Sequence record: NC_073082
Length of the DNA: 44,715 nucleotides
Strand: one strand, 5' to 3'
From: Shigella phage vB_SboD_StarDew
The translations under genes and the position numbers were made by a program. Numbering within the stretch: the stretch's first letter is position 1; every line of letters starts with the position of its first letter. The notes below the pieces were generated by a model. The model was given only the letters and a program-made list of their open reading frames with translations, was not told the origin of the DNA and searched no databases. Shown here in pieces: positions 5,882 to 40,789 of the stretch.

Positions 5882-5910
5882 TTTTGTGTCCTCGTTGTTG
5901 GTGTGCAACC

Positions 5911-5940
5911 AATATAATGCAACCAATACTCGGATTGCAA
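5911..5940 (-). promoter_or_regulatory. candidate promoter (minus strand): -35 TTGCAA, 18-bp spacer containing ATTGGTTGCA, -10 TATATT
   Basis: Read on reverse complement; same architecture recurs at 27247-27275 and 40008-40036. Confidence 0.45.
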
Positions 5941-10785: not shown

Positions 10786-10810
10786 TGGGGCCAGTACGGC
10801 CCCTTTTTTA
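10786..10810 (+). terminator. rho-independent terminator after major tail gene (GGGGCC-agtac-GGCCCC + TTTTTT)
   Basis: Read directly. Confidence 0.6.
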
Positions 10811-11188: not shown

Positions 11189-11502
11189 TTGAGGCGGCGC
11201 GACGCTTTTATGGCCCGCCGCCACCCTCCGAAGATTTAGCCGCAAGTTTATGGGGTGCGACCCCCGAAGATGTTTGCCCGCCGGTTGCACTATGGCCCGA
11301 CAACGCGAAGGTAGTCGCAGTCTTCACAGATTGCTCCACGCAATGGCGCACCGGATTCGGTGGCGCATACGGCATCGACTACGGCGTACTGGAATGGCTA
11401 TTTAAGATGCACGGCATCGAAAACGCGCAACGTGCGTTTAAAGATATCAAGCTAATGGAACGCGTTGCGCTGGATGAAATGGCGCGGCAGAACCACGCAT
11501 AA
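10826..11502 (+). CDS. tail assembly chaperone GT-like fusion made by -1 programmed frameshift at A_AAA_AAC (11179-11185)
   Basis: -1 frame is open from 11179 to stop at 11500-11502 with no in-frame start codon until 11407; slippery heptamer sits just before the G stop codon. Confidence 0.6.
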
Positions 11503-11504
11503 CG

Positions 11505-11817
11505 GAGCGGGACAGGCGGGACGTCCCGTTTTGTCCCGCACCTCTAAAACTGCATATTTACTCACCACAATTGCATAAATTAAAAGCGGGACAGGGGTGC
11601 TGTCCCGCTTTGTCCCTCCCTTAAAAGTGAATAGCTATGCGGTTTTTCTGCATAAAACAAACGGGACAAAAAGCGGGACTGAATGGGGCGGGACAAAGCG
11701 GGACAGCACCCCTGTCCCCGCCAGTGCTGCCGCGGTTTTTAGCCGATCGGGACAGGCGGGACAAAGCCCAGTCTTTCAGACTAGACGGGGGGTCTGGCAC
11801 CCCCTCGTCTGAGACTG
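11505..11817. repeat. iteron/hairpin array A: multiple GCGGGACA repeats, palindromes, ACTGCATAA motifs and a 49-nt imperfect hairpin
   Basis: Read directly; about 90 bp plus the 49-nt hairpin nearly identical to 39660-39848. Confidence 0.85.
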
Positions 11818-11885
11818 AATAAGGTTTGTTTTAAATTCGCTGATACAATGACCGACGGCAACTGCATAAAAAGGGGGACTGCATA

Positions 11886-21959: not shown

Positions 21960-22039
21960 GGTATCATCCCCTATATTTGGTTGAGTTTTAGTATTACACC
22001 GCTCAACCGGGATTGCAACCAATTTAAGAGGATTCAGCT

Positions 22040-24125: not shown

Positions 24126-24152
24126 GAAAGGGGCCGTGCGGCCCCTTTTTTT
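24126..24152. terminator. bidirectional terminator (GGGGCCG-tgc-GGCCCC flanked by T-runs on both strands)
   Basis: Read directly; ends the tail fiber gene and the leftward operon. Confidence 0.65.
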
Positions 24153-25291: not shown

Positions 25292-25353
25292 TATGTTTTC
25301 CTTTTTAGTGGGGGCGGTATTGCCCCCGACGTGATTAAGATACTGCAACCAAC

Positions 25354-25824
25354 CTATTGGTTGCAAGTGAATTTTGCAACGTTTATCGCATAAATTTTCG
25401 GGACCAGATCGCCGCACGCCCGACGAATTGCCGCGATGTTCTTCGGACAGTCTTCAATGATGACCAGTTCCGACACGTCCGCGTAGCAGACCATTTTGAA
25501 CACGGCGCACGCCTTAAACTCTGGCGGCGGGGTGTCGTCCAGCATGTGGCGCATAAACAACCGGCCTACCGGGAATACCTCCAATTGCTCGGCGGTGGTG
25601 TCCCAACATTCACGCTGCCGGTTGGTCAGATACGCGATCTCGAAGCCTTGCTCTTTGTACATGGTCAGCAGCGGCAGCATATCCATGTTCAGATCTTCGC
25701 GTACGTGCGCTCTGTGCCACTTCGCCCAAAAGGTGGATTTAGTTTTTATGCCAGGCACCAGGTCGGCACGCGCATCGCTTGAACCGTTAATAACGCCATC
25801 CAGATCGCAAATCAGTAATTTCAT
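25354..25824 (-). CDS. HAD-superfamily phosphatase-like protein (possible nucleotidase / polynucleotide 3-prime phosphatase)
   Basis: N-terminal HAD motif I (LLICDLDGVI); GAGGAG RBS. Confidence 0.55.
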   Translation of the reverse strand: MKLLICDLDGVINGSSDARADLVPGIKTKSTFWAKWHRAHVREDLNMDMLPLLTMYKEQGFEIAYLTNRQRECWDTTAEQLEVFPVGRLFMRHMLDDTPPPEFKACAVFKMVCYADVSELVIIEDCPKNIAAIRRACGDLVPKIYAINVAKFTCNQ

Positions 25825-27246: not shown

Positions 27247-27275
27247 AATATAATGCAACCAATACGGTTATGCAA
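27247..27275 (-). promoter_or_regulatory. candidate promoter (minus strand): -35 TTGCAT, 17-bp spacer containing ATTGGTTGCA, -10 TATATT
   Basis: Read on reverse complement; 19-mer AATATAATGCAACCAATAC identical to 5911-5929. Confidence 0.45.
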
Positions 27276-27280
27276 CCAAT

Positions 27281-29940: not shown

Positions 29941-29983
29941 CGTCATGTCTCCCAAAAATGGCGGGACAAGCCCGCCGTATTAA

Positions 29984-30197: not shown

Positions 30198-30476
30198 CTA
30201 TGCGACCAATTCAGCAACCAATAAATCACAGTCGGCGATGTTGTCGATAACGCGAACGTCCGCACCGCGGCGGGCCATTCGCTCATGTTCACGTACCTGG
30301 TGCGGCTTCGGTTTTCCTCCTGGGCGCTTCACTTCGACGAACACTATTTTGCCGTTGATGATGATAATCAGGTCTGGCGCACCTGCGCGCCCCTCCCAGG
30401 CCATTTTGCGGCAGAATCCGCCTACCTCTTTCACCCGTCGCATCAGGTGACTTTGAATCTTTCCTTCTGGTGTCAT
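30198..30476 (-). CDS. VRR-NUC domain nuclease
   Basis: PD-(D/E)xK core APDLIIIINGKIVFVEVKRPGGK; ATGA overlap with polymerase stop. Confidence 0.65.
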   Translation of the reverse strand: MTPEGKIQSHLMRRVKEVGGFCRKMAWEGRAGAPDLIIIINGKIVFVEVKRPGGKPKPHQVREHERMARRGADVRVIDNIADCDLLVAELVA

Positions 30477-32992: not shown

Positions 32993-33775
32993 TTAACGGC
33001 GGCGACGTTTGCGTGGCGCTTCGTCTTCGTCGTCGTCCTCATCTTCGTCATCGCGTGGCTTACGACGTTTGCGAGGTTTTTCATCTTCCTCATCGTCGTC
33101 GTCATCGCGGCGCTTGGACTTTTTGGACTTACGCGGCTTATCATCTTCATCATCGTCATCACGACGTTTTGACTTCTTAGCCTTGCGCGGTGCTTCGTCT
33201 TCGTCGTCGTTGTCCAGGTCTTCATCGGAGCAAGAAGATCCGCCACCGCCGAAGGCTTCGCCGTCATCCCGGAAGCGCAGACCCAAAAGACCAGCACCGA
33301 GTCCCTTGCCGTTGGTATTGTTCCACGCCCAAATATCCAGTGACACGTTGCAATAACAACCGGAGTAGATCTCCTGGCCTTCGATCTCGTCGCCTTCTAC
33401 GGTCAGACCTTGTTCAGTCTGCTTCTCGCCGAGTGACGTTTGAATGTTTGGTTGTTTGAACGATTTGGCGTTGATGTACAACATGCCTTCGAATTCTTCG
33501 GTTTCTTCGTCGCGCTCGTCACCGTCGCGAACTGCACATTCCTTAGAATCCTGGGCGTAGTGGCGGTCCATCCACTTATCGGCATTCTTCTCGGACTTCA
33601 GCTTGTCGGTGAGCACTGCGCGCGCTGCCGCTTCCACTTTGTCCACCTGCGGATCTTCTTTATCCAGAAGAATCACGGCGCGGTATGCTGGTTTTTGTCC
33701 ATCCTGTTTAGGGGTATCGCGTTCCCAAATTTTCAGGAAACATACGCGCACATTTTTCAGGTTGACTTTAGCCAT
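32993..33775 (-). CDS. putative ssDNA-binding protein (T7 gp2.5-like / DUF2815-like) with repetitive charged C-terminal tail
   Basis: N-terminal MAKVNLKNVRVCFLKIWE and central GKGLGAGLLGLRF resemble gp2.5-type SSB; GAGGAA RBS; C-terminus is D/E and K/R block repeats. Confidence 0.5.
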   Translation of the reverse strand: MAKVNLKNVRVCFLKIWERDTPKQDGQKPAYRAVILLDKEDPQVDKVEAAARAVLTDKLKSEKNADKWMDRHYAQDSKECAVRDGDERDEETEEFEGMLYINAKSFKQPNIQTSLGEKQTEQGLTVEGDEIEGQEIYSGCYCNVSLDIWAWNNTNGKGLGAGLLGLRFRDDGEAFGGGGSSCSDEDLDNDDEDEAPRKAKKSKRRDDDDEDDKPRKSKKSKRRDDDDDEEDEKPRKRRKPRDDEDEDDDEDEAPRKRRRR

Positions 33776-36009: not shown

Positions 36010-36525
36010 TTAATCTTCCAGTTCGAAATAAGTTTCGACGATTTCTTTAAGATCTTTGTGGAAGTCTTCGACGTCTTCATCTTCCAGCTTGGCGATTGAT
36101 TTGATCTCGAACGATTCCAGCAGGTCGTCAAATTCGTCGTTCGCGTCGTCGTCGTCACCACCGGCAATAATAGCGGCATATTGTTTGATTTCGTCGCGCA
36201 TCTCCGCCAGCGGATCGGCATCTTTCTTGCCTTTGACTTTCGCCGGGGCTTTTTTAGATTTAGCCGGTTTTTCGTCTTCGGCATCATCGTCGTCATCTTC
36301 TACGACTTCTTTTTTGGCCTTACCTTTCGCCGGGGCTTTTTTAGATTTAGCCGGTTTTTCGTCTTCGGCGTCATCGTCGTCATCTTCGACAACTTCTTTT
36401 TTCACCTTAGACGGCTTCTTGTCTTCCTGCTTACCAACGGCAGCGCCAACGGTTTCATAATGCTTAGCGATGGTTTCCAGTGCTACTACGCCGCGAGTAA
36501 TCAGGTTTACGATTTGTTCAAACAT
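36010..36525 (-). CDS. first gene of leftward early operon: protein with tandem Lys/Asp/Glu-rich repeats and acidic C-terminus
   Basis: GGAGA RBS before ATG at 36525; 26-aa unit KKEVVEDDDDDAEDEKPAKSKKAPAK repeated twice; track ORF 36010..36753 trimmed. Confidence 0.55.
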   Translation of the reverse strand: MFEQIVNLITRGVVALETIAKHYETVGAAVGKQEDKKPSKVKKEVVEDDDDDAEDEKPAKSKKAPAKGKAKKEVVEDDDDDAEDEKPAKSKKAPAKVKGKKDADPLAEMRDEIKQYAAIIAGGDDDDANDEFDDLLESFEIKSIAKLEDEDVEDFHKDLKEIVETYFELED

Positions 36526-36721
36526 GGTGTATCTCCGATTGGTTAAGTTTAGGTGTCGGCAGTTAACTTCGTCGGTGGCCTTAACATATTGCCAGGTTAC
36601 GCGTTCTCCCGTTCGGGTAGTGGACCTGGTTATATAATCACGGTTGGGAATCCTGACACTTCGATCCGGCCCCTGCGTTGCCCCTCTCCAGTTTGCGTCC
36701 TGCATCCTGTCGACGGAGTGA

Positions 36722-36750
36722 ATATTAGATTGGTTGCAGAAGGGAGTCAA
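36722..36750 (-). promoter_or_regulatory. candidate leftward early promoter: -35 TTGACT, 17-bp spacer containing TGCAACCAAT, -10 TAATAT
   Basis: Read on reverse complement directly downstream of the minus-strand terminator. Confidence 0.35.
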
Positions 36751-36759
36751 CAACTAATT

Positions 36760-36925: not shown

Positions 36926-37255
36926 ATGAATGTAAATGACGCAATCGAAATGTTAACGAAGACTGTTAGCAGTGAAACACGCCGGTCATGGGCTTATACC
37001 GATGCCGTGGGGGCGGTGTTATTTGAAATCGAACGACTGCGCAGTGTCGAAAAAGAATTACGCGCCAGGCTGGAATTGCTCAACGGCACGGCAGCAAGCA
37101 AGCTGCAAAAGCACAATGAAGAAATGGAAGAATACAAAAAACAGGTTATCCGTTTGCGCGCCGAGGGCAAATCCTGGGCGATGATTGCCGAGTTGACCGG
37201 AATTAATCAGAGCACAGTGCGCTCCTGGGTACGCAATAATAAAACTTCTAAGTAA
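36926..37255 (+). CDS. HTH DNA-binding protein (candidate transcriptional regulator)
   Basis: C-terminal helix-turn-helix-like segment GKSWAMIAELTGINQSTVRSWV; GAGGG RBS; first rightward gene. Confidence 0.55.
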   Translation: MNVNDAIEMLTKTVSSETRRSWAYTDAVGAVLFEIERLRSVEKELRARLELLNGTAASKLQKHNEEMEEYKKQVIRLRAEGKSWAMIAELTGINQSTVRSWVRNNKTSK

Positions 37256-37265
37256 GGCCGCGGCA

Positions 37266-39530
37266 ATGAGCTTAATTAAATTCGCTGTAACACGACCCGC
37301 TAAAAAAGGCGAAAAAGCCAGGGCGGAAAACTTCCAGATGACTACCGAAGAGTTTTTCGAATTTATCAATGATGCGAAAGAAATCTCCTCGGTGCATATC
37401 AACAAAACGGAAGATAAAGCGGAGTATGCACGCCGCAAGCGTAAGGCCGATGGCATTGTGGCTTATACCAGTGACGGCTTACGTCGCAAGACCAGTGCGG
37501 TGGACCGCTCGATCCTGTTCTTCGATATTGACCGTACTGACACCCGCACCCTACGCCGCTGCCGTAAGGCGTTCATCGACGCGGGACTGGAACACGTATT
37601 TCACACCACAACCGGCGACCGCCACCCGCTGAAAGGCGGCACGCGTTGCGCTCGATTCCTGGTACTCACGGACAAGCCTGTACCAGCTGAAGACCTGGGC
37701 CGTGTCCAGTATGCGCTATTACACCAACTGGGCCTGTCAGATGTGGACTTCGACGACTGCACGAAAGACACAAACCGCCTTATGTACCTGCCACACCAGC
37801 AGTCTGTTATTAAGTGCCACTATGGCAAGCGCGCCCGCGTCCGTCGTCTGCTCCGCCTGGCTGACAAGCTGGGAGTGGAAAAAGAGGAAGTTCGCCGCGA
37901 ACTGACCCAGGGCGACGACGCAGTGGCAGACGGCATTCTGGACTGGTGCTTCCAGGCAGGATTCGAGGAGTTATCTTCCGGTCGGGGTTATGAAGTGCCG
38001 TGCCCGAACGAACATCTGCACAGCGGCGAAGGGTCGACGGCTATCATGGTCAAGGATGGCGAGATCCGTTTCAAGTGTATGCACACCGGCAACGAGTGTT
38101 GCTCGGAGCTGAACAGACACCAACACCTGGCGCTGCGTCTTATCGGCATACCGGACCACCTCAACGTCGAGCCACACAATATGTCCCGTAAGCAAATCGC
38201 CGCCATCCTTCCGGGGCTGGACGACGAGGAAGTGGAATCCTTATACGAACATATTGTTGATGCAGTTGGCGACGGCGAAGAATACGGCGTGTGCACCGAT
38301 GCGGACCTGGATAACGAGCTGGTTGCGCTGTTCAGTAAGCACGACCCGATCATCGAGGGGTTGATTAACTTTAAATCGACCTGGTACATGGCTGGCGAGT
38401 CGAATATCGGTAAGTCTTTCTACGTGCTGGGCCAGATGGGAGCGGTTGCCGCCGGTATTCCGTTTGGTGGCGCGAAGGTCGTCCAGTCTCATTGCTTCTA
38501 TTTCGACGCGGAAGGTGGCGAAGCCTCCAACCAGCGTAAAGAAGCATTGCAGATTAAATACGAGCACGACCTGGACAAGCTGCACATTATAGACCTGCAG
38601 TCACGCGGCTGGGATATCACCAGCAAATCAGGCTTGCGCGAAGTTATCAGCTTTATCAACCGCACCGCTAACGGCGAACCGGTTGGCCTGGTGGCGTTCG
38701 ACTCACTCAACCAGACGGTTGCGTTGCGGTCCGCTGATGCTAAACCGTTCGACGAGAACAACGCCAGCGATATGGGTGAAGTGGTCAAAGCGCTGAAGGC
38801 CATCGCGGAAAATACAGGTGGCAGTGCGGGCGTCATCCACCACCCGGCTAAAGGTGCAAACGGCAGCAGAACGCCACGCGGGTCCGGTGCGCTGCATGGT
38901 GCTGTCGATTCTGCGTTCTTCCTGGAACAGCCGGACGACAACCAGCCCGGACAATTGAACCTGTATCACGAAAAGTCACGTAACGGCATCAAGCAAGCGC
39001 CGCGCGGCTTCGTCCTGCTCAAGTGCAAGGTGAAGGTGGATCTCCGCAAGTCAGAAGCGTTCGAGGCGCACCAGTCCACCAGCACCGGGCCAGACTTCGG
39101 CGACGTGGTTGCCGGATGGGACGTCAAGCCGATTGCCTCCACGCCACGCGACGAGACTCTCTACCTCGTACCGGTTGCCCTGGCACCGTTCGCTATTGAA
39201 CAGGCGAAGGCCGCGGGCAAAGCAGCAGTTAAAGAAGAGAACACCGCCGGACCGCGCAACGAAAAAGAGAAAGTGCTCTATGCGGCACTGGAAAAACTGA
39301 TGGAAGATAACCCGGACCATACTGGATTCAGTAAATCGGCAATTGTCCGCCAGGCTGGGCTGGCAAAAGGTGGCACTTCGACGAAGGCAATCGACGATAT
39401 GGTGGAGCGCGGGGTGATAGGTTTTTACACCGATCCGCACACCGGGGCCATCTATGGGTCGTCTAATTTGGTCATCAAATCGGATATACCCATCACGCTT
39501 TCAGCGACCGATGACGATTTAAAAGATTAA
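37266..39530 (+). CDS. DNA primase/helicase-like replication protein (prim-pol-like N-terminus, Cys/His cluster, RecA-like ATPase domain)
   Basis: ILFFDIDR acidic motif, Cys/His cluster CPNEHLHSGEGS...FKCMHTGNECC, Walker A MAGESNIGKS and Walker B-like LVAFDSLN. Confidence 0.65.
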   Translation: MSLIKFAVTRPAKKGEKARAENFQMTTEEFFEFINDAKEISSVHINKTEDKAEYARRKRKADGIVAYTSDGLRRKTSAVDRSILFFDIDRTDTRTLRRCRKAFIDAGLEHVFHTTTGDRHPLKGGTRCARFLVLTDKPVPAEDLGRVQYALLHQLGLSDVDFDDCTKDTNRLMYLPHQQSVIKCHYGKRARVRRLLRLADKLGVEKEEVRRELTQGDDAVADGILDWCFQAGFEELSSGRGYEVPCPNEHLHSGEGSTAIMVKDGEIRFKCMHTGNECCSELNRHQHLALRLIGIPDHLNVEPHNMSRKQIAAILPGLDDEEVESLYEHIVDAVGDGEEYGVCTDADLDNELVALFSKHDPIIEGLINFKSTWYMAGESNIGKSFYVLGQMGAVAAGIPFGGAKVVQSHCFYFDAEGGEASNQRKEALQIKYEHDLDKLHIIDLQSRGWDITSKSGLREVISFINRTANGEPVGLVAFDSLNQTVALRSADAKPFDENNASDMGEVVKALKAIAENTGGSAGVIHHPAKGANGSRTPRGSGALHGAVDSAFFLEQPDDNQPGQLNLYHEKSRNGIKQAPRGFVLLKCKVKVDLRKSEAFEAHQSTSTGPDFGDVVAGWDVKPIASTPRDETLYLVPVALAPFAIEQAKAAGKAAVKEENTAGPRNEKEKVLYAALEKLMEDNPDHTGFSKSAIVRQAGLAKGGTSTKAIDDMVERGVIGFYTDPHTGAIYGSSNLVIKSDIPITLSATDDDLKD

Positions 39531-39607
39531 ATTTTGCGCGCATTGGTCGCCGTTATGGGAATCCCCATATCGGTAAAAGATTAAATTTTGCGCGCATTGG
39601 TTGCCAT
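39521..39607 (+). repeat. pair of 31-nt direct repeats (AAAAGATTAAATTTTGCGCGCATTGGT(C/T)GCC) separated by 25 bp
   Basis: Read directly; first copy overlaps primase stop codon; each copy contains an ATTGGT(C/T)GCC element. Confidence 0.85.
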
Positions 39608-39659
39608 TTTGCGTGCTTTTAGCCGGTCGTATTGGTTGCCGTGTAGTGTAAATATAATG

Positions 39660-39848
39660 AATAGTTATGCAGTTTTATTGCATAAAGTAAGCGGGACAAA
39701 AAGCGGGACAGACCAGGGGCGGGACAAAGCGGGACAGCACCCCTGTCCCGCCCCGGATGACGCGGCCTGGCGAGGAGCGGGACAGCGGGACAGCACCCCA
39801 GTCTTTCAGACTAGACGGGGGGTCTGGCACCCCCCTCGTCTGAGACTG
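39660..39848. repeat. iteron/hairpin array B, near-duplicate of array A
   Basis: Shares GGGACAAAAAGCGGGAC, GGGGCGGGACAAAGCGGGACAGCACCCCTGTCCC and the 49-50 nt hairpin with array A. Confidence 0.85.
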
Positions 39849-40007
39849 CATAAAATCCAGGATTGCATAACGCACGGCAACATGATGCAAATTGCGGTCG
39901 TCGATGATCTAGGCAACCAATGCGAGTTGCAGAATGGTGGGTGAGAAATGCAGTTTGCAGTCACAGCAGATAGCGATCAACTTTTTCATACGCGTGATTA
40001 ATATTGG

Positions 40008-40036
40008 TTGCACCCACCCTGGCACCCTGCTATATT
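40008..40036 (+). promoter_or_regulatory. candidate promoter: -35 TTGCAC within ATTGGTTGCA, 17-bp spacer, -10 TATATT, conserved leader
   Basis: Leader TATATTGGTTGCACACCAACA...GAGGAC nearly identical to the reverse complement of 5890-5916. Confidence 0.45.
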
Positions 40037-40064
40037 GGTTGCACACCAACATGAGGACTGAACA

Positions 40065-40370
40065 ATGAAAGCATTAATCTGGAATTACACAATGGCGGTG
40101 GCGAAGCTGTATGAAGCGAAGCACACAGACGGCAACGCAGACGACGCTCGCCAGGTTGTCATCCTGGCCCGGCAGGGAATCATGGACGCGTTCGACGATA
40201 TGTTTGCCAGCCTGGACGAACTGGAACCGCTGCGCGTGGCAATCTGCGAATATGCGAGGGCATTTGCCCGTGAGCGCCTGGCGTATCGCTTCGGGATCGG
40301 AGAGACGGCAGCGACAAACGTCGCCCGGATTAAAGCCCAGCGCGAGCTATTCGCCCAGCTTGCGAAATAA
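40065..40370 (+). CDS. hypothetical protein (101 aa)
   Basis: GAGGA RBS; first gene downstream of promoter at 40008-40036. Confidence 0.5.
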   Translation: MKALIWNYTMAVAKLYEAKHTDGNADDARQVVILARQGIMDAFDDMFASLDELEPLRVAICEYARAFARERLAYRFGIGETAATNVARIKAQRELFAQLAK

Positions 40371-40379
40371 GGGGCCAAA

Positions 40380-40649
40380 ATGGACCGCAGACGCGCAAAA
40401 CGCCTTTCATGGCGTATTCCACTGCATTGCATACGAATATGGGCTAAGAATGCGAATGAGGGCGATTCTGTGTTCTGGTGCTATCGCGACGATGTGAAGC
40501 CATTAACGCAGACTCGCTATCTGCACCAGTTCGCCAGGGGGCATGGGCTTGCCATAAAAACGTCCTTGCAACCAATTGGCATCCGTATTACATTACGCCG
40601 GAAGCCCGCAGTCGAGCGGGTAGGCAAACACTGGAGACTGAGCAAATGA
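40380..40649 (+). CDS. hypothetical basic protein (89 aa)
   Basis: AAGGGG RBS 6 nt upstream of ATG; alternative-frame ORFs overlap, so coding frame uncertain. Confidence 0.35.
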   Translation: MDRRRAKRLSWRIPLHCIRIWAKNANEGDSVFWCYRDDVKPLTQTRYLHQFARGHGLAIKTSLQPIGIRITLRRKPAVERVGKHWRLSK

Positions 40650-40789
40650 CACCAGCACTAATGGCGGGATTCTCGCAGAAGTTTATTTCTGTTGATGCCT
40701 GCATAGCAGATTATGAGATGGACGGCATCGCTACGGTGTGCGATGGCGACACGAAAACGGCCGATGAGACTGAGGAGACAGAACAATGA
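40646..40789 (+). CDS. small acidic ORF (47 aa), ATGA-coupled to neighbours
   Basis: GGAG RBS 9 nt upstream; start overlaps upstream stop, stop overlaps downstream start. Confidence 0.35.
   Translation: MTPALMAGFSQKFISVDACIADYEMDGIATVCDGDTKTADETEETEQ

Follow-up and report, generated by a model that had tools for sequence, protein, structure and literature searches.

A repeat and hairpin array 3′ of the primase-helicase gene as a candidate replication origin of Dhillonvirus vB_SboD_StarDew

The window analyzed here is the complete 44,715-bp genome of Shigella phage vB_SboD_StarDew (sequence record NC_073082), a Dhillonvirus (HK578-like) siphophage of Escherichia coli. It carries two intergenic arrays of the short repeat GCGGGACA in the same orientation: array B, which lies 3′ of the gene for a 754-residue primase-helicase, and array A, which precedes the tape-measure gene. 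The repeat layout, an AT-rich patch, the linkage to the helicase gene, a helix of the helicase-primase that varies together with the repeat, and the way in which both arrays change together from lineage to lineage lead us to favor the reading that array B is probably an iteron-type origin or a cis-acting replication site, with array A as an ancient second copy. The preliminary description of this DNA had favored an origin role for array B from its proximity to the primase gene, and that role finds partial support in the comparative layout, the helix co-variation, and the AT-rich patch.

Array B and its association with primase-helicase genes

The repeat GCGGGACA occurs 16 times in the window against 2.0 copies expected, a count that was reached in 0 of 100 shuffles, and 14 of the 16 copies fall within two intergenic regions (11507 to 11763 or 39691 to 39792). 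TGCATAA is also present in 16 copies (5.8 expected) and is clustered at both arrays. From 5′ to 3′, array B opens with an AT-rich patch (39645 to 39690), a candidate DNA-unwinding element that contains GTGAATAGTTATGCAG and the palindrome TTATGCA-N7-TGCATAA (39665 to 39685) and reaches 77 to 83% AT in 30-nucleotide (nt) windows, against 45% genome-wide. Four direct iterons and one inverted copy follow on the plus strand (39691 to 39751; dyad GCGGGACAGCACCCCTGTCCCGC), the direct copies starting at 39691, 39703, 39719, and 39729; start-to-start spacings within the block are 12, 16, 10, and 15 nt, and the block is kept in all relatives aligned. A spacer (39752 to 39776) that differs between A and B, and is conserved within each type in the 16 genome pairs aligned, leads to two further direct plus-strand iterons 8 nt apart (39777 to 39792), which brings the array to seven CGGGAC/GTCCCG copies, six direct and one inverted, in 39691 to 39792. 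The hairpin (39799 to 39848) comes next, and two plus-strand TGCATAA boxes 17 nt apart (39847 to 39870) form the downstream limit of the homology with array A. The two copies of GCGGGACA outside the arrays, at 801 to 808 in the large terminase gene and at 29961 to 29968 near the helicase-gene region, are coding and within the number expected by chance.

The primase-helicase ORF (open reading frame) ends at 39530, the array module begins 128 nt beyond it, and the first iteron begins 162 nt beyond it. The preliminary description had placed the array directly downstream of the primase gene; the interval from the gene stop to array B (39531 to 39657) has a different repeat and a separate motif system, ATTGGTYGC.

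The hairpin of array B is a GC-rich, imperfect structure of 50 nt, whose lower stem is constant and whose apical loop varies. Its fold (-28.4 kcal/mol, z of -3.05 against shuffled sequence) is close to that of the 49-nt hairpin of array A at 11769 to 11817 (-26.8 kcal/mol, z of -2.93). The extra C of the B copy, which lies within a C-run, had been correctly recognized in the preliminary description, as had the palindrome. We found 19 distinct hairpin variants with differing loops and a single compensatory pair change, in locus L273, where AGACG/CGTCT is replaced by GGACGG/CCGTCC (A to G in the left arm and T to C in the right arm). The invariance of the lower stem is partly circular, as many loci were retrieved with that 21-mer, though four loci retrieved otherwise (L001, L002, L043, and L069) have it as well. 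An intrinsic (Rho-independent) terminator was rejected for this hairpin, which is followed by GCATAAAATCC with no T-run; a terminator scan of both strands found none in 39400 to 40200 and only a minus-strand iteron dyad in array A.

Such arrays are associated with helicase genes outside the genus as well. When metagenome and viral contigs were searched for exact occurrences of CGGGACAAAGCGGGAC, many that are not from Dhillonviruses proved to hold CGGGACA/TGTCCCG in dense clusters, and in the first three examined the array starts at the stop codon of a gene for a primase fused to an AAA_25 RepA-type helicase (Pfam), the same helicase family as that of the window protein. A profile of the helicase core, then run on all loci, found the helicase in 7 of 27 metagenome loci with at least four copies of the repeat and in 0 of 93 with fewer (Fisher P = 1.5e-5), and in 31 of 43 viral contigs with at least four copies against 4 of 31 with fewer (Fisher P = 4e-7). 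Across the 33 distinct helicase-linked arrays, the first repeat starts at a median of +5 nt from the last codon of the helicase gene, 30 arrays have it within -200 to +150 nt, and in 28 the first copy is on the coding strand. Their common layout begins at the stop codon with two to three direct repeats. A small palindrome, for instance CGGGACATGTCCCG, separates these from two to three more direct repeats, and a long GC-rich palindromic hairpin and then inverted repeats follow. The layout of array B is that of these unrelated arrays. Judged from the contigs compared, the repeat and hairpin layout 3′ of RepA-type primase-helicase genes is a widespread and previously undescribed arrangement, and it is the part of this work that is new. 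Other replication genes adjoin the repeat, too. The L263 array occupies the 3′ end of the gene for a Toprim/zinc-ribbon primase-helicase. In two IMG/VR contigs, L270 (2855 to 2967) and L271 (12925 to 13069), six CGGGACA copies lie inside an ORF of 216 or 291 residues whose N terminus is winged-helix-like by inspection, and the L270 ORF directly follows a DnaB-type helicase gene. These copies are in different reading frames, which places the repetition at the level of DNA, and the arrangement is similar to that of the lambda origin inside gene O. A tblastn search of a metagenomic helicase against plasmids gave only distant, uncharacterized RepA-family matches.

The proposed initiator is the primase-helicase itself (37266 to 39530, plus strand), which has a RepA-type AAA_25 core (Pfam E value, 9e-20), matches PHROG 3228 (“replicative helicase-primase”), and is annotated as helicase-primase in its GenBank relatives; Pfam and PHROG searches gave no Toprim or superfamily-3 match. 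Its C terminus contains a predicted winged-helix domain (39261 to 39476, plus strand) that is a candidate reader of the iterons. In the AlphaFold2 model of the region encoded by 39120 to 39527, residues 48 to 119 of the model, about the last 70 ordered residues of the protein, form an H-H-H-beta-beta arrangement with a block pLDDT (predicted local distance difference test) of 72 to 88, and the best Foldseek matches in the PDB are all winged-helix DNA binders (MarR-family proteins, ORC, and histone H1), albeit weak ones (E values of 0.012 and above). A profile search with the C terminus also gave weak matches to the winged-helix protein eS25, and the C-terminal fragment alone returned a single protein when used as a homologue query. 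A separate iteron-binding protein of the KRKAFNR type was rejected, as that domain is found nowhere among the window proteins. As a side observation, the helix-turn-helix part of the C terminus (39285 to 39380, residues ∼674 to 705, GFSKSAIVRQAGLAKGGTSTKAIDDMVERG) resembles the TALE-like repeats of BurrH (PDB 4cj9, RGFSQxDIVKIAGNxGG); single repeats score i-Evalues of at least 0.8 for a summed E value of 1.5e-23, and chance or a common helix-loop-helix motif is a possible explanation. An alternative candidate for the reader of GCGGGACA is the 109-residue helix-turn-helix protein encoded at 36926 to 37255, which is genus-specific and has a sigma-70 region 4-like motif.

The repeat and the C-terminal helix vary together. 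Four helicase-positive loci without dense CGGGACA have CCAGACA (L201, L213, and L214) or GGGTACA (L203) in the same place and with the same layout. Among six proteins of one clade, 68 to 88% identical, the four linked to CGGGACA have the invariant helix TARKQFQRAP; the corresponding helix is AKRQRFNRAK in the CGTGACA homologue and TLRARFKRAH in the CCAGACA homologue. The sample is small and relatedness is only partly controlled; an origin and the determinant of its specificity would be expected to give this pattern. Among the relatives found, just one is both named and well known, Rhizobium phage 16-3, whose protein p101 is 68% identical to one array-linked protein and whose p101 gene is followed by GCGTGACA repeats and a hairpin. 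No origin of phage 16-3 is defined in the searchable literature, and the array after p101 is a candidate for it. That array (L231 4660 to 5040, NC_011103 ∼56240 to 56620) also has the IHF-consensus-like elements AATCAATGACTTG and AACAATAACTTA, and IHF-like AATCAATGACTTA lies inside the arrays of the 16-3 clade.

We propose that array B (39645 to 39870) would serve as an iteron-type origin, or as the cis-acting site where the primase-helicase assembles. A sequence-specific reader, most likely the predicted C-terminal winged helix of the primase-helicase, would bind the six direct and one inverted GCGGGACA copies. Binding would destabilize the adjoining 77 to 83% AT patch, drive extrusion of the 50-nt GC-rich hairpin, or both, and the helicase ring could then load onto the exposed single strand. 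The N-terminal primase would prime, and the phage polymerase of Pol I type together with a gp2.5-like single-strand binding protein would extend. In such a scheme array B would occupy the ancestral position 3′ of the primase-helicase gene, and array A would be an ancient duplicate bound by the same reader, acting as a second origin or auxiliary site in a way that may be likened to oriL/oriR of SPP1 or ori/crr of P4.

Array A and the history of the pair

The claim of a same-orientation second copy ∼28 kb away is confirmed by pairwise alignment. The repeat finder reports 39658 to 39853 as a same-strand copy of 11628 to 11822 with a co-linear offset of 28,030 to 28,031 nt and 1-nt indels, in blocks of 55 nt (85% identical), 34 nt (100%), 88 nt (76%), and 23 nt (96%), and the wider interval 39610 to 39900 aligns with 11580 to 11870 on the same strand, again with 1-nt indels. 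Such 1-nt indels separate the copies and also separate genomes, which rules out that the arrays are coding. The two copies had been described as nearly the same in sequence, which is accurate for the iteron and hairpin blocks, to which near-identity is confined, but not for the shared module as a whole (∼74% identical). Array A had also been drawn too small, at 11630 to 11817; it spans 11503 to 11885 on the plus strand, is larger than array B, and holds 12 CGGGAC/GTCCCG copies, some of them inverted, against 7 in B.

Array A fills the noncoding gap from the stop of the tail-chaperone frameshift ORF (11500 to 11502) to the start codon of the tape-measure gene. It includes a large inverted repeat (11586 to 11718) with arms of 33 to 35 nt (11586 to 11620 and 11686 to 11718) that are 97% complementary and flank an AT-rich core (11621 to 11661); AT content reaches 67 to 77% in 11545 to 11585 and 67% in 11620 to 11660. 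Searched against Rfam, this inverted repeat gave just generic long-hairpin (miRNA precursor) matches far below threshold. An extended -10-like element, TGATACAAT (11841 to 11849, plus strand), lies ∼35 nt before the tape-measure start and is conserved in the array A alignment. It was found by sequence inspection and missed by the consensus promoter scan, which needs a -35 hexamer, and it possibly serves the distal tail genes as an internal promoter.

Both arrays are conserved in close relatives. The best-matching GenBank records are phiEco273, vB_EcoS_SD276, and EP23 (95 to 96% identity), and array matches were found in 157 of 157 related GenBank phage records, each with a match to both array regions, for 347 matching places in total and two or more places in most records. 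The alignment comprised 17 A-type and 18 B-type loci (L006, first filed as A-type, is a B array), and 16 genome pairs were analyzed. The shared module reads, in order, AT-rich GTGAATAGYTATGC...TGCATAAA; four direct CGGGACA repeats with A-rich spacers and a terminal dyad; a segment of ∼25 nt that is different in A and B and constant within each type; two more repeats; the hairpin; and G(C/A)ATAA. The iterons are much better conserved than the spacers. Identity is 88% for A-A and for B-B comparisons, and that between A and B is 77.2% within the same genome against 76.0% between genomes (permutation P = 0.015). Loop variants, and variants of the two-repeat block before the hairpin, occur at both A and B positions, which suggests occasional exchange of patches and not wholesale homogenization. 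On these comparisons A and B have evolved as separate, position-specific loci.

Deeper lineages keep the pair while the repeat itself changes. CGGGACA arrays stand at both positions (L006 after the helicase gene and L273 before the tape-measure gene) in a lineage whose tape-measure identity is 59% and whose helicase gene is ∼70% identical in nucleotides. In another lineage, where helicase identity falls to 46%, regions A and B are again noncoding and repetitive, and both carry (A/G)GGGAT(A/C)/GATCCC repeats instead. In the outgroup, Salmonella phage SaI_NFG_5579 (43% helicase identity), the helicase gene is followed by GTGAATAGTTATG twice and then by G-rich repeats and hairpins. From this comparison of lineages and outgroup we read that the A/B pair is old, that its two members changed their repeat jointly, and that region A is not universal. 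Other family members have a single array within the 6 to 14 kb of sequence available for each.

Several observations on these relatives may be recorded here. In L273 (2170 to 2700; ENA contig k141_89000), a 126-residue minus-strand gene with no Pfam match and a ATTGGTTGC pair are inserted between the tail-chaperone ORF and array A, and the region before array A thus tolerates insertions. The opening box of the Dhillonvirus module, GTGAATAGT(TATG), occurs twice right after the helicase stop in SaI_NFG_5579 (L033 1 to 90 and 41400 to 41650) and twice in the spacers of sigma-70-like promoters ∼260 bp past the helicase gene in Escherichia phage Hrm2 (L228 5420 to 5490). The SaI_NFG_5579 record has ∼370 bp of the helicase 3′ end at both termini, through terminal redundancy or assembly overlap.

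The pairing of A and B is already on record and is not new here. In Sodalis phage SO-1 (NC_013600.1), a member of the genus, a repeat_region at 11214 to 11597 is annotated as region A (384 bp) and 40178 to 40657 as region B, and the note on region A mentions “direct, inverted and palindromic repeat sequences” and sequence similarity with region B. These are the same two elements at the same positions, known from annotation only. Our searches of the literature on Dhillonvirus/HK578, SO-1, the phage 16-3 origin, and the motif itself found no description of the array, and no Dhillonvirus replication origin is defined in the searchable literature.

Alternative explanations

Array B combines clustered short repeats, linkage to a helicase gene, an adjoining AT-rich stretch, and co-variation of repeat and protein, features of the origin type, and array A has no linkage to an initiator or helicase gene. 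A number of observations weigh against an origin reading of the pair. Array A has no adjoining replication gene, and its position also fits a promoter or regulatory region of the tail genes. GC skew tracks gene orientation with no turning point at either array, and it is lowest at ∼36 to 37 kb, the region of the divergent early promoters, which also has the lowest GC content. CGGGACA, region A, and a gap before the tape-measure gene are all absent from the nearest outgroup, SaI_NFG_5579. Approximately 12 of the 43 dense viral arrays have no helicase within the contig sequence examined, and the contigs were retrieved by the motif itself, which shows an association and not how general the element is. 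Finally, the C-terminal domain of the Dhillonvirus protein and the KRKAFNR-type domain of the other CGGGACA-linked helicases align with an hhalign probability of just 2.5%.

The alternative that we take most seriously, while holding it unlikely, is that both arrays are transcription-control regions in which GCGGGACA and TGCATAA are bound by a phage regulator, for example the 109-residue helix-turn-helix protein, which would switch on or insulate two late plus-strand units, one after B with the small genes and those for lysis, packaging, and the head, the other after A with the tape-measure gene and the distal tail genes. Both arrays are indeed co-oriented with, and directly upstream of, plus-strand gene blocks; TGATACAAT follows A and a sigma-70-like promoter follows B, the terminator-like hairpin at 10788 to 10809 upstream of A makes renewed initiation before the tape-measure gene plausible, the proposed regulator has its sigma-70 region 4-like motif and is confined to the genus, and GTGAATAGT boxes lie within promoter spacers in phage Hrm2. 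Against this, the constant neighbor across 33 unrelated elements is the upstream helicase gene and no particular downstream gene, the repeats lie within an ORF in L270 and L271, and the repeat co-varies with a helix of the helicase-primase. A promoter scan of both arrays found no more sites than expected by chance, and the clear promoter motif system of this genome, ATTGGTTGC, is a different one that is absent from array A. A sigma-54 promoter was rejected on inspection, for the TGGCAC in the hairpin loop has the wrong spacing to a GC element and the loop is variable between relatives.

It is also conceivable, as a minor possibility, that the GCGGGACA array and hairpin form a portable origin cassette that moves between replication modules, or that the repeat is read by a factor other than the C terminus, such as a host factor or a conserved region elsewhere in the helicase or primase. 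At least four initiator designs are accompanied by this 7- to 8-mer: an AAA_25 helicase carrying a KRKAFNR-type domain, the AAA_25 helicase of Dhillonviruses, whose winged helix is unrelated to that domain, a Toprim primase-helicase, and a separate lambda-O-like protein beside a DnaB-type helicase. If such a cassette or other reader were at work, the copy in the tail operon of Dhillonviruses would be more than a spare origin and could couple replication to the dosage or timing of late genes, or loop to array B. Comparison with host-factor sites (DnaA boxes, IHF, CsrA GGA motifs, Chi, and those of several E. coli regulators) gave no fit; an IHF-consensus scan found no site near either array.

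An improbable alternative is that hairpin and repeats act as RNA in the late transcripts, by processive antitermination of the put/nut kind or as a signal for RNA processing or stability. Antitermination elements of the put/nut kind also come as two copies per genome, both arrays are on the transcribed strand, and the hairpin, no canonical terminator, folds more stably than shuffled sequence does (z of about -3), with a constant lower stem, a variable apical loop, and the one compensatory change in L273. The fold of the minus strand, however, is at least as good (-31.0 against -28.4 kcal/mol), which a DNA palindrome would explain and a strand-specific RNA would not, the repeats occur in both orientations, the wider family has at gene 3′ ends hairpins that are perfect DNA palindromes with flanking inverted repeats, and array A is downstream, not upstream, of the terminator at 10788 to 10809. 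A search of the whole window at the Rfam gathering score was empty, and permissive searches of both arrays gave generic hairpins far below threshold; membership of a curated antitermination RNA family (HK022 put or lambda nut) was rejected on the empty search and on the equally good folding of both strands.

The preliminary description had further raised recombination between the arrays, and the idea that the direct repeats are recombination substrates or remnants of a mobile repeat with no sequence-specific function is very improbable and unsupported: the slight excess of A-B identity within genomes and the loop and short-segment variants common to the A and B positions across genomes favor it, but A-A and B-B identity is far above A-B identity (∼76%) with each type keeping its own segments, both positions are kept in the 59%-tape-measure lineage, than which their separation is older, and, with a different repeat, in the 46%-helicase lineage, the iterons are far better conserved than the spacers, and deletion between direct repeats would remove 28 kb or 16.7 kb of essential genes.

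Genome context, known origins, and implications

The gene map was taken from the collinear BASEL phage PaulFeyerabend. Plus-strand genes (those for holins, endolysin, terminase, head, and tail, and small genes) occupy the stretch that begins at ∼40.0 kb, passes the window ends, and stops at 24.1 kb, the minus strand encodes replication, recombination, and methylase genes in 24.15 to 36.75 kb, and a short plus-strand unit at 36.9 to 39.5 kb holds the genes for the 109-residue helix-turn-helix protein and the primase-helicase. The motif system between the helicase gene and array B (39520 to 39639, plus strand) consists of two 38-nt direct repeats (TAAAAGATTAAATTTTGCGCGCATTGGTYGCC), reported by the repeat finder, and a third ATTGGTTGC box, with ATTGGTTGC matches at 39542, 39596, and 39631. 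Downstream of array B and outside the repeat module, a sigma-70-like promoter (TTGCAC, 17 nt, TATATT; 40003 to 40042, plus strand) with two flanking ATTGGTTGC boxes precedes the first small gene at 40065 and is kept in all array B loci aligned. Boxes of ATTGGTTGC thus lie on both sides of array B, and none is present in array A. Several GenBank records stop ∼105 bp past array B.

Across the window ATTGGTTGC(A) has ∼16 exact copies, and 25 matches against 12.5 expected if one mismatch is allowed. Its sites are at 5905 to 5927(-), 22015 to 22023(-), 25345 to 25364, 27255 to 27280(-), 30202 to 30222(-), 33902, 36729, 39542 to 39639(+), 39913 to 39921(-), 40003 to 40042(+), and 40568(-), usually in pairs at sigma-70-like promoters (TTGCAx, 17 to 18 nt, TATATT, GGTTGCACACCAACA) of genes on both strands, and the system looks like the promoter-operator system of a phage regulator. 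Mutually similar GC hairpins with T-runs (GGGCCAGTACGGCCCCTTTTTT and GGGGCCGTGCGGCCCCTTTTTT) lie at 10788 to 10809, after the major tail protein gene, and at 24130 to 24151, where the plus-strand genes meet the convergent minus-strand genes; each is probably an intrinsic terminator. Within minus-strand genes, GTC/GAT-rich coding repeats at 33009 to 33227 and 36133 to 36394 give acidic Asp/Glu runs, and an 87-nt tandem duplication (36216 to 36302 and 36303 to 36389, 90% identical) lies inside a 247-residue ORF of unknown function (36010 to 36753). A packaging-site reading of the array was set aside: the small terminase is of the P22 gp3/Sf6 type, with both Pfam matches below the curated cutoffs, and this points to headful packaging, with its site close to the terminase gene.

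Four known systems invite comparison with the origin reading of array B. Ubeda and co-workers are said to have placed the ori of staphylococcal pathogenicity islands (SaPIs) directly 3′ of the pri-rep genes. As proposed for array B, that origin lies downstream of a helicase/initiator gene and has sets of short repeats beside or flanking an AT-rich stretch, its specificity is set by the C terminus of the SaPI initiator, and the repeat differs between related SaPIs; the Rep helicase is of another family, hosts and sequences are others, and a SaPI has a single origin. In satellite phage P4, ori and crr are reportedly bound by the alpha primase-helicase, in work attributed to Ziegelin et al. in 1993 and Flensburg and Calendar in 1987. 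P4 resembles the arrangement here in having a primase-helicase with a C-terminal winged-helix origin-binding domain (predicted in the window protein) and octamer repeats (TGTTCACC) in two arrays, with crr just downstream of the primase-helicase gene and one protein binding both. It differs in that alpha joins a Toprim primase to a superfamily-3 helicase core in place of the RepA-type AAA_25, the repeat is TGTTCACC and not GCGGGACA, 4.5 kb separates the P4 sites, compared with 28 or 16.7 kb here, and the long GC-rich hairpin has no counterpart. Membership of the P4 ori/crr system was rejected on the AAA_25 core and on GCGGGACA, though similar working is possible.

Bacillus phage SPP1 reportedly has two origins, oriL and oriR, in accounts ascribed to Pedre et al. 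in 1994 and Missich et al. in 1997. These are distant repeat-containing origins with one initiator, one at the replication genes and the other among late genes, as is proposed for the pair described here, whereas the initiator G38P is a separate replisome organizer unfused to the helicase, oriL is inside its own gene, and the repeats are unrelated. The oriV of the IncQ plasmid RSF1010 has iterons and the hairpins ssiA and ssiB, and is served by the RepA helicase, the RepB′ primase, and the RepC initiator. Common ground includes the RepA helicase family (Pfam AAA_25), iterons, GC-rich and AT-rich segments, and hairpins, which are priming signals in IncQ. The differences are three separate proteins, iterons of 20 to 22 bp against 7 to 8 bp, and two opposite-strand hairpins against one per array in the same direction, and RSF1010 RepA (PDB 1g8y) has a negligible sequence match to the window protein (E value, 0.54). 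Membership of IncQ oriV with ssi hairpins was rejected on the single same-facing hairpin per array and the 7- to 8-bp repeats.

The comparative pattern amounts to a specific and testable origin prediction for the Dhillonviruses and phage 16-3, as well as for satellite-like elements and phages known only from uncultivated sources, dozens in all, with the predicted search rule of NNNNACA repeats and a GC-rich hairpin directly 3′ of a RepA-type primase-helicase gene. The natural variants of repeat and helix (CGGGACA, CGTGACA, CCAGACA, and GGGTACA) would provide a ready set for work on DNA recognition. Dhillonviruses are common E. coli phages that are widely used in studies of defense systems and in the BASEL collection, and origin fragments would be useful for phage engineering, for plasmids amplified by infection, and for reading how defense systems sense phage replication. 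The copy in the tail operon, if it is an origin, would be a second example, in a Gram-negative host, of the two-origin layout of SPP1, and it raises the question of what purpose an origin in the late region may serve.

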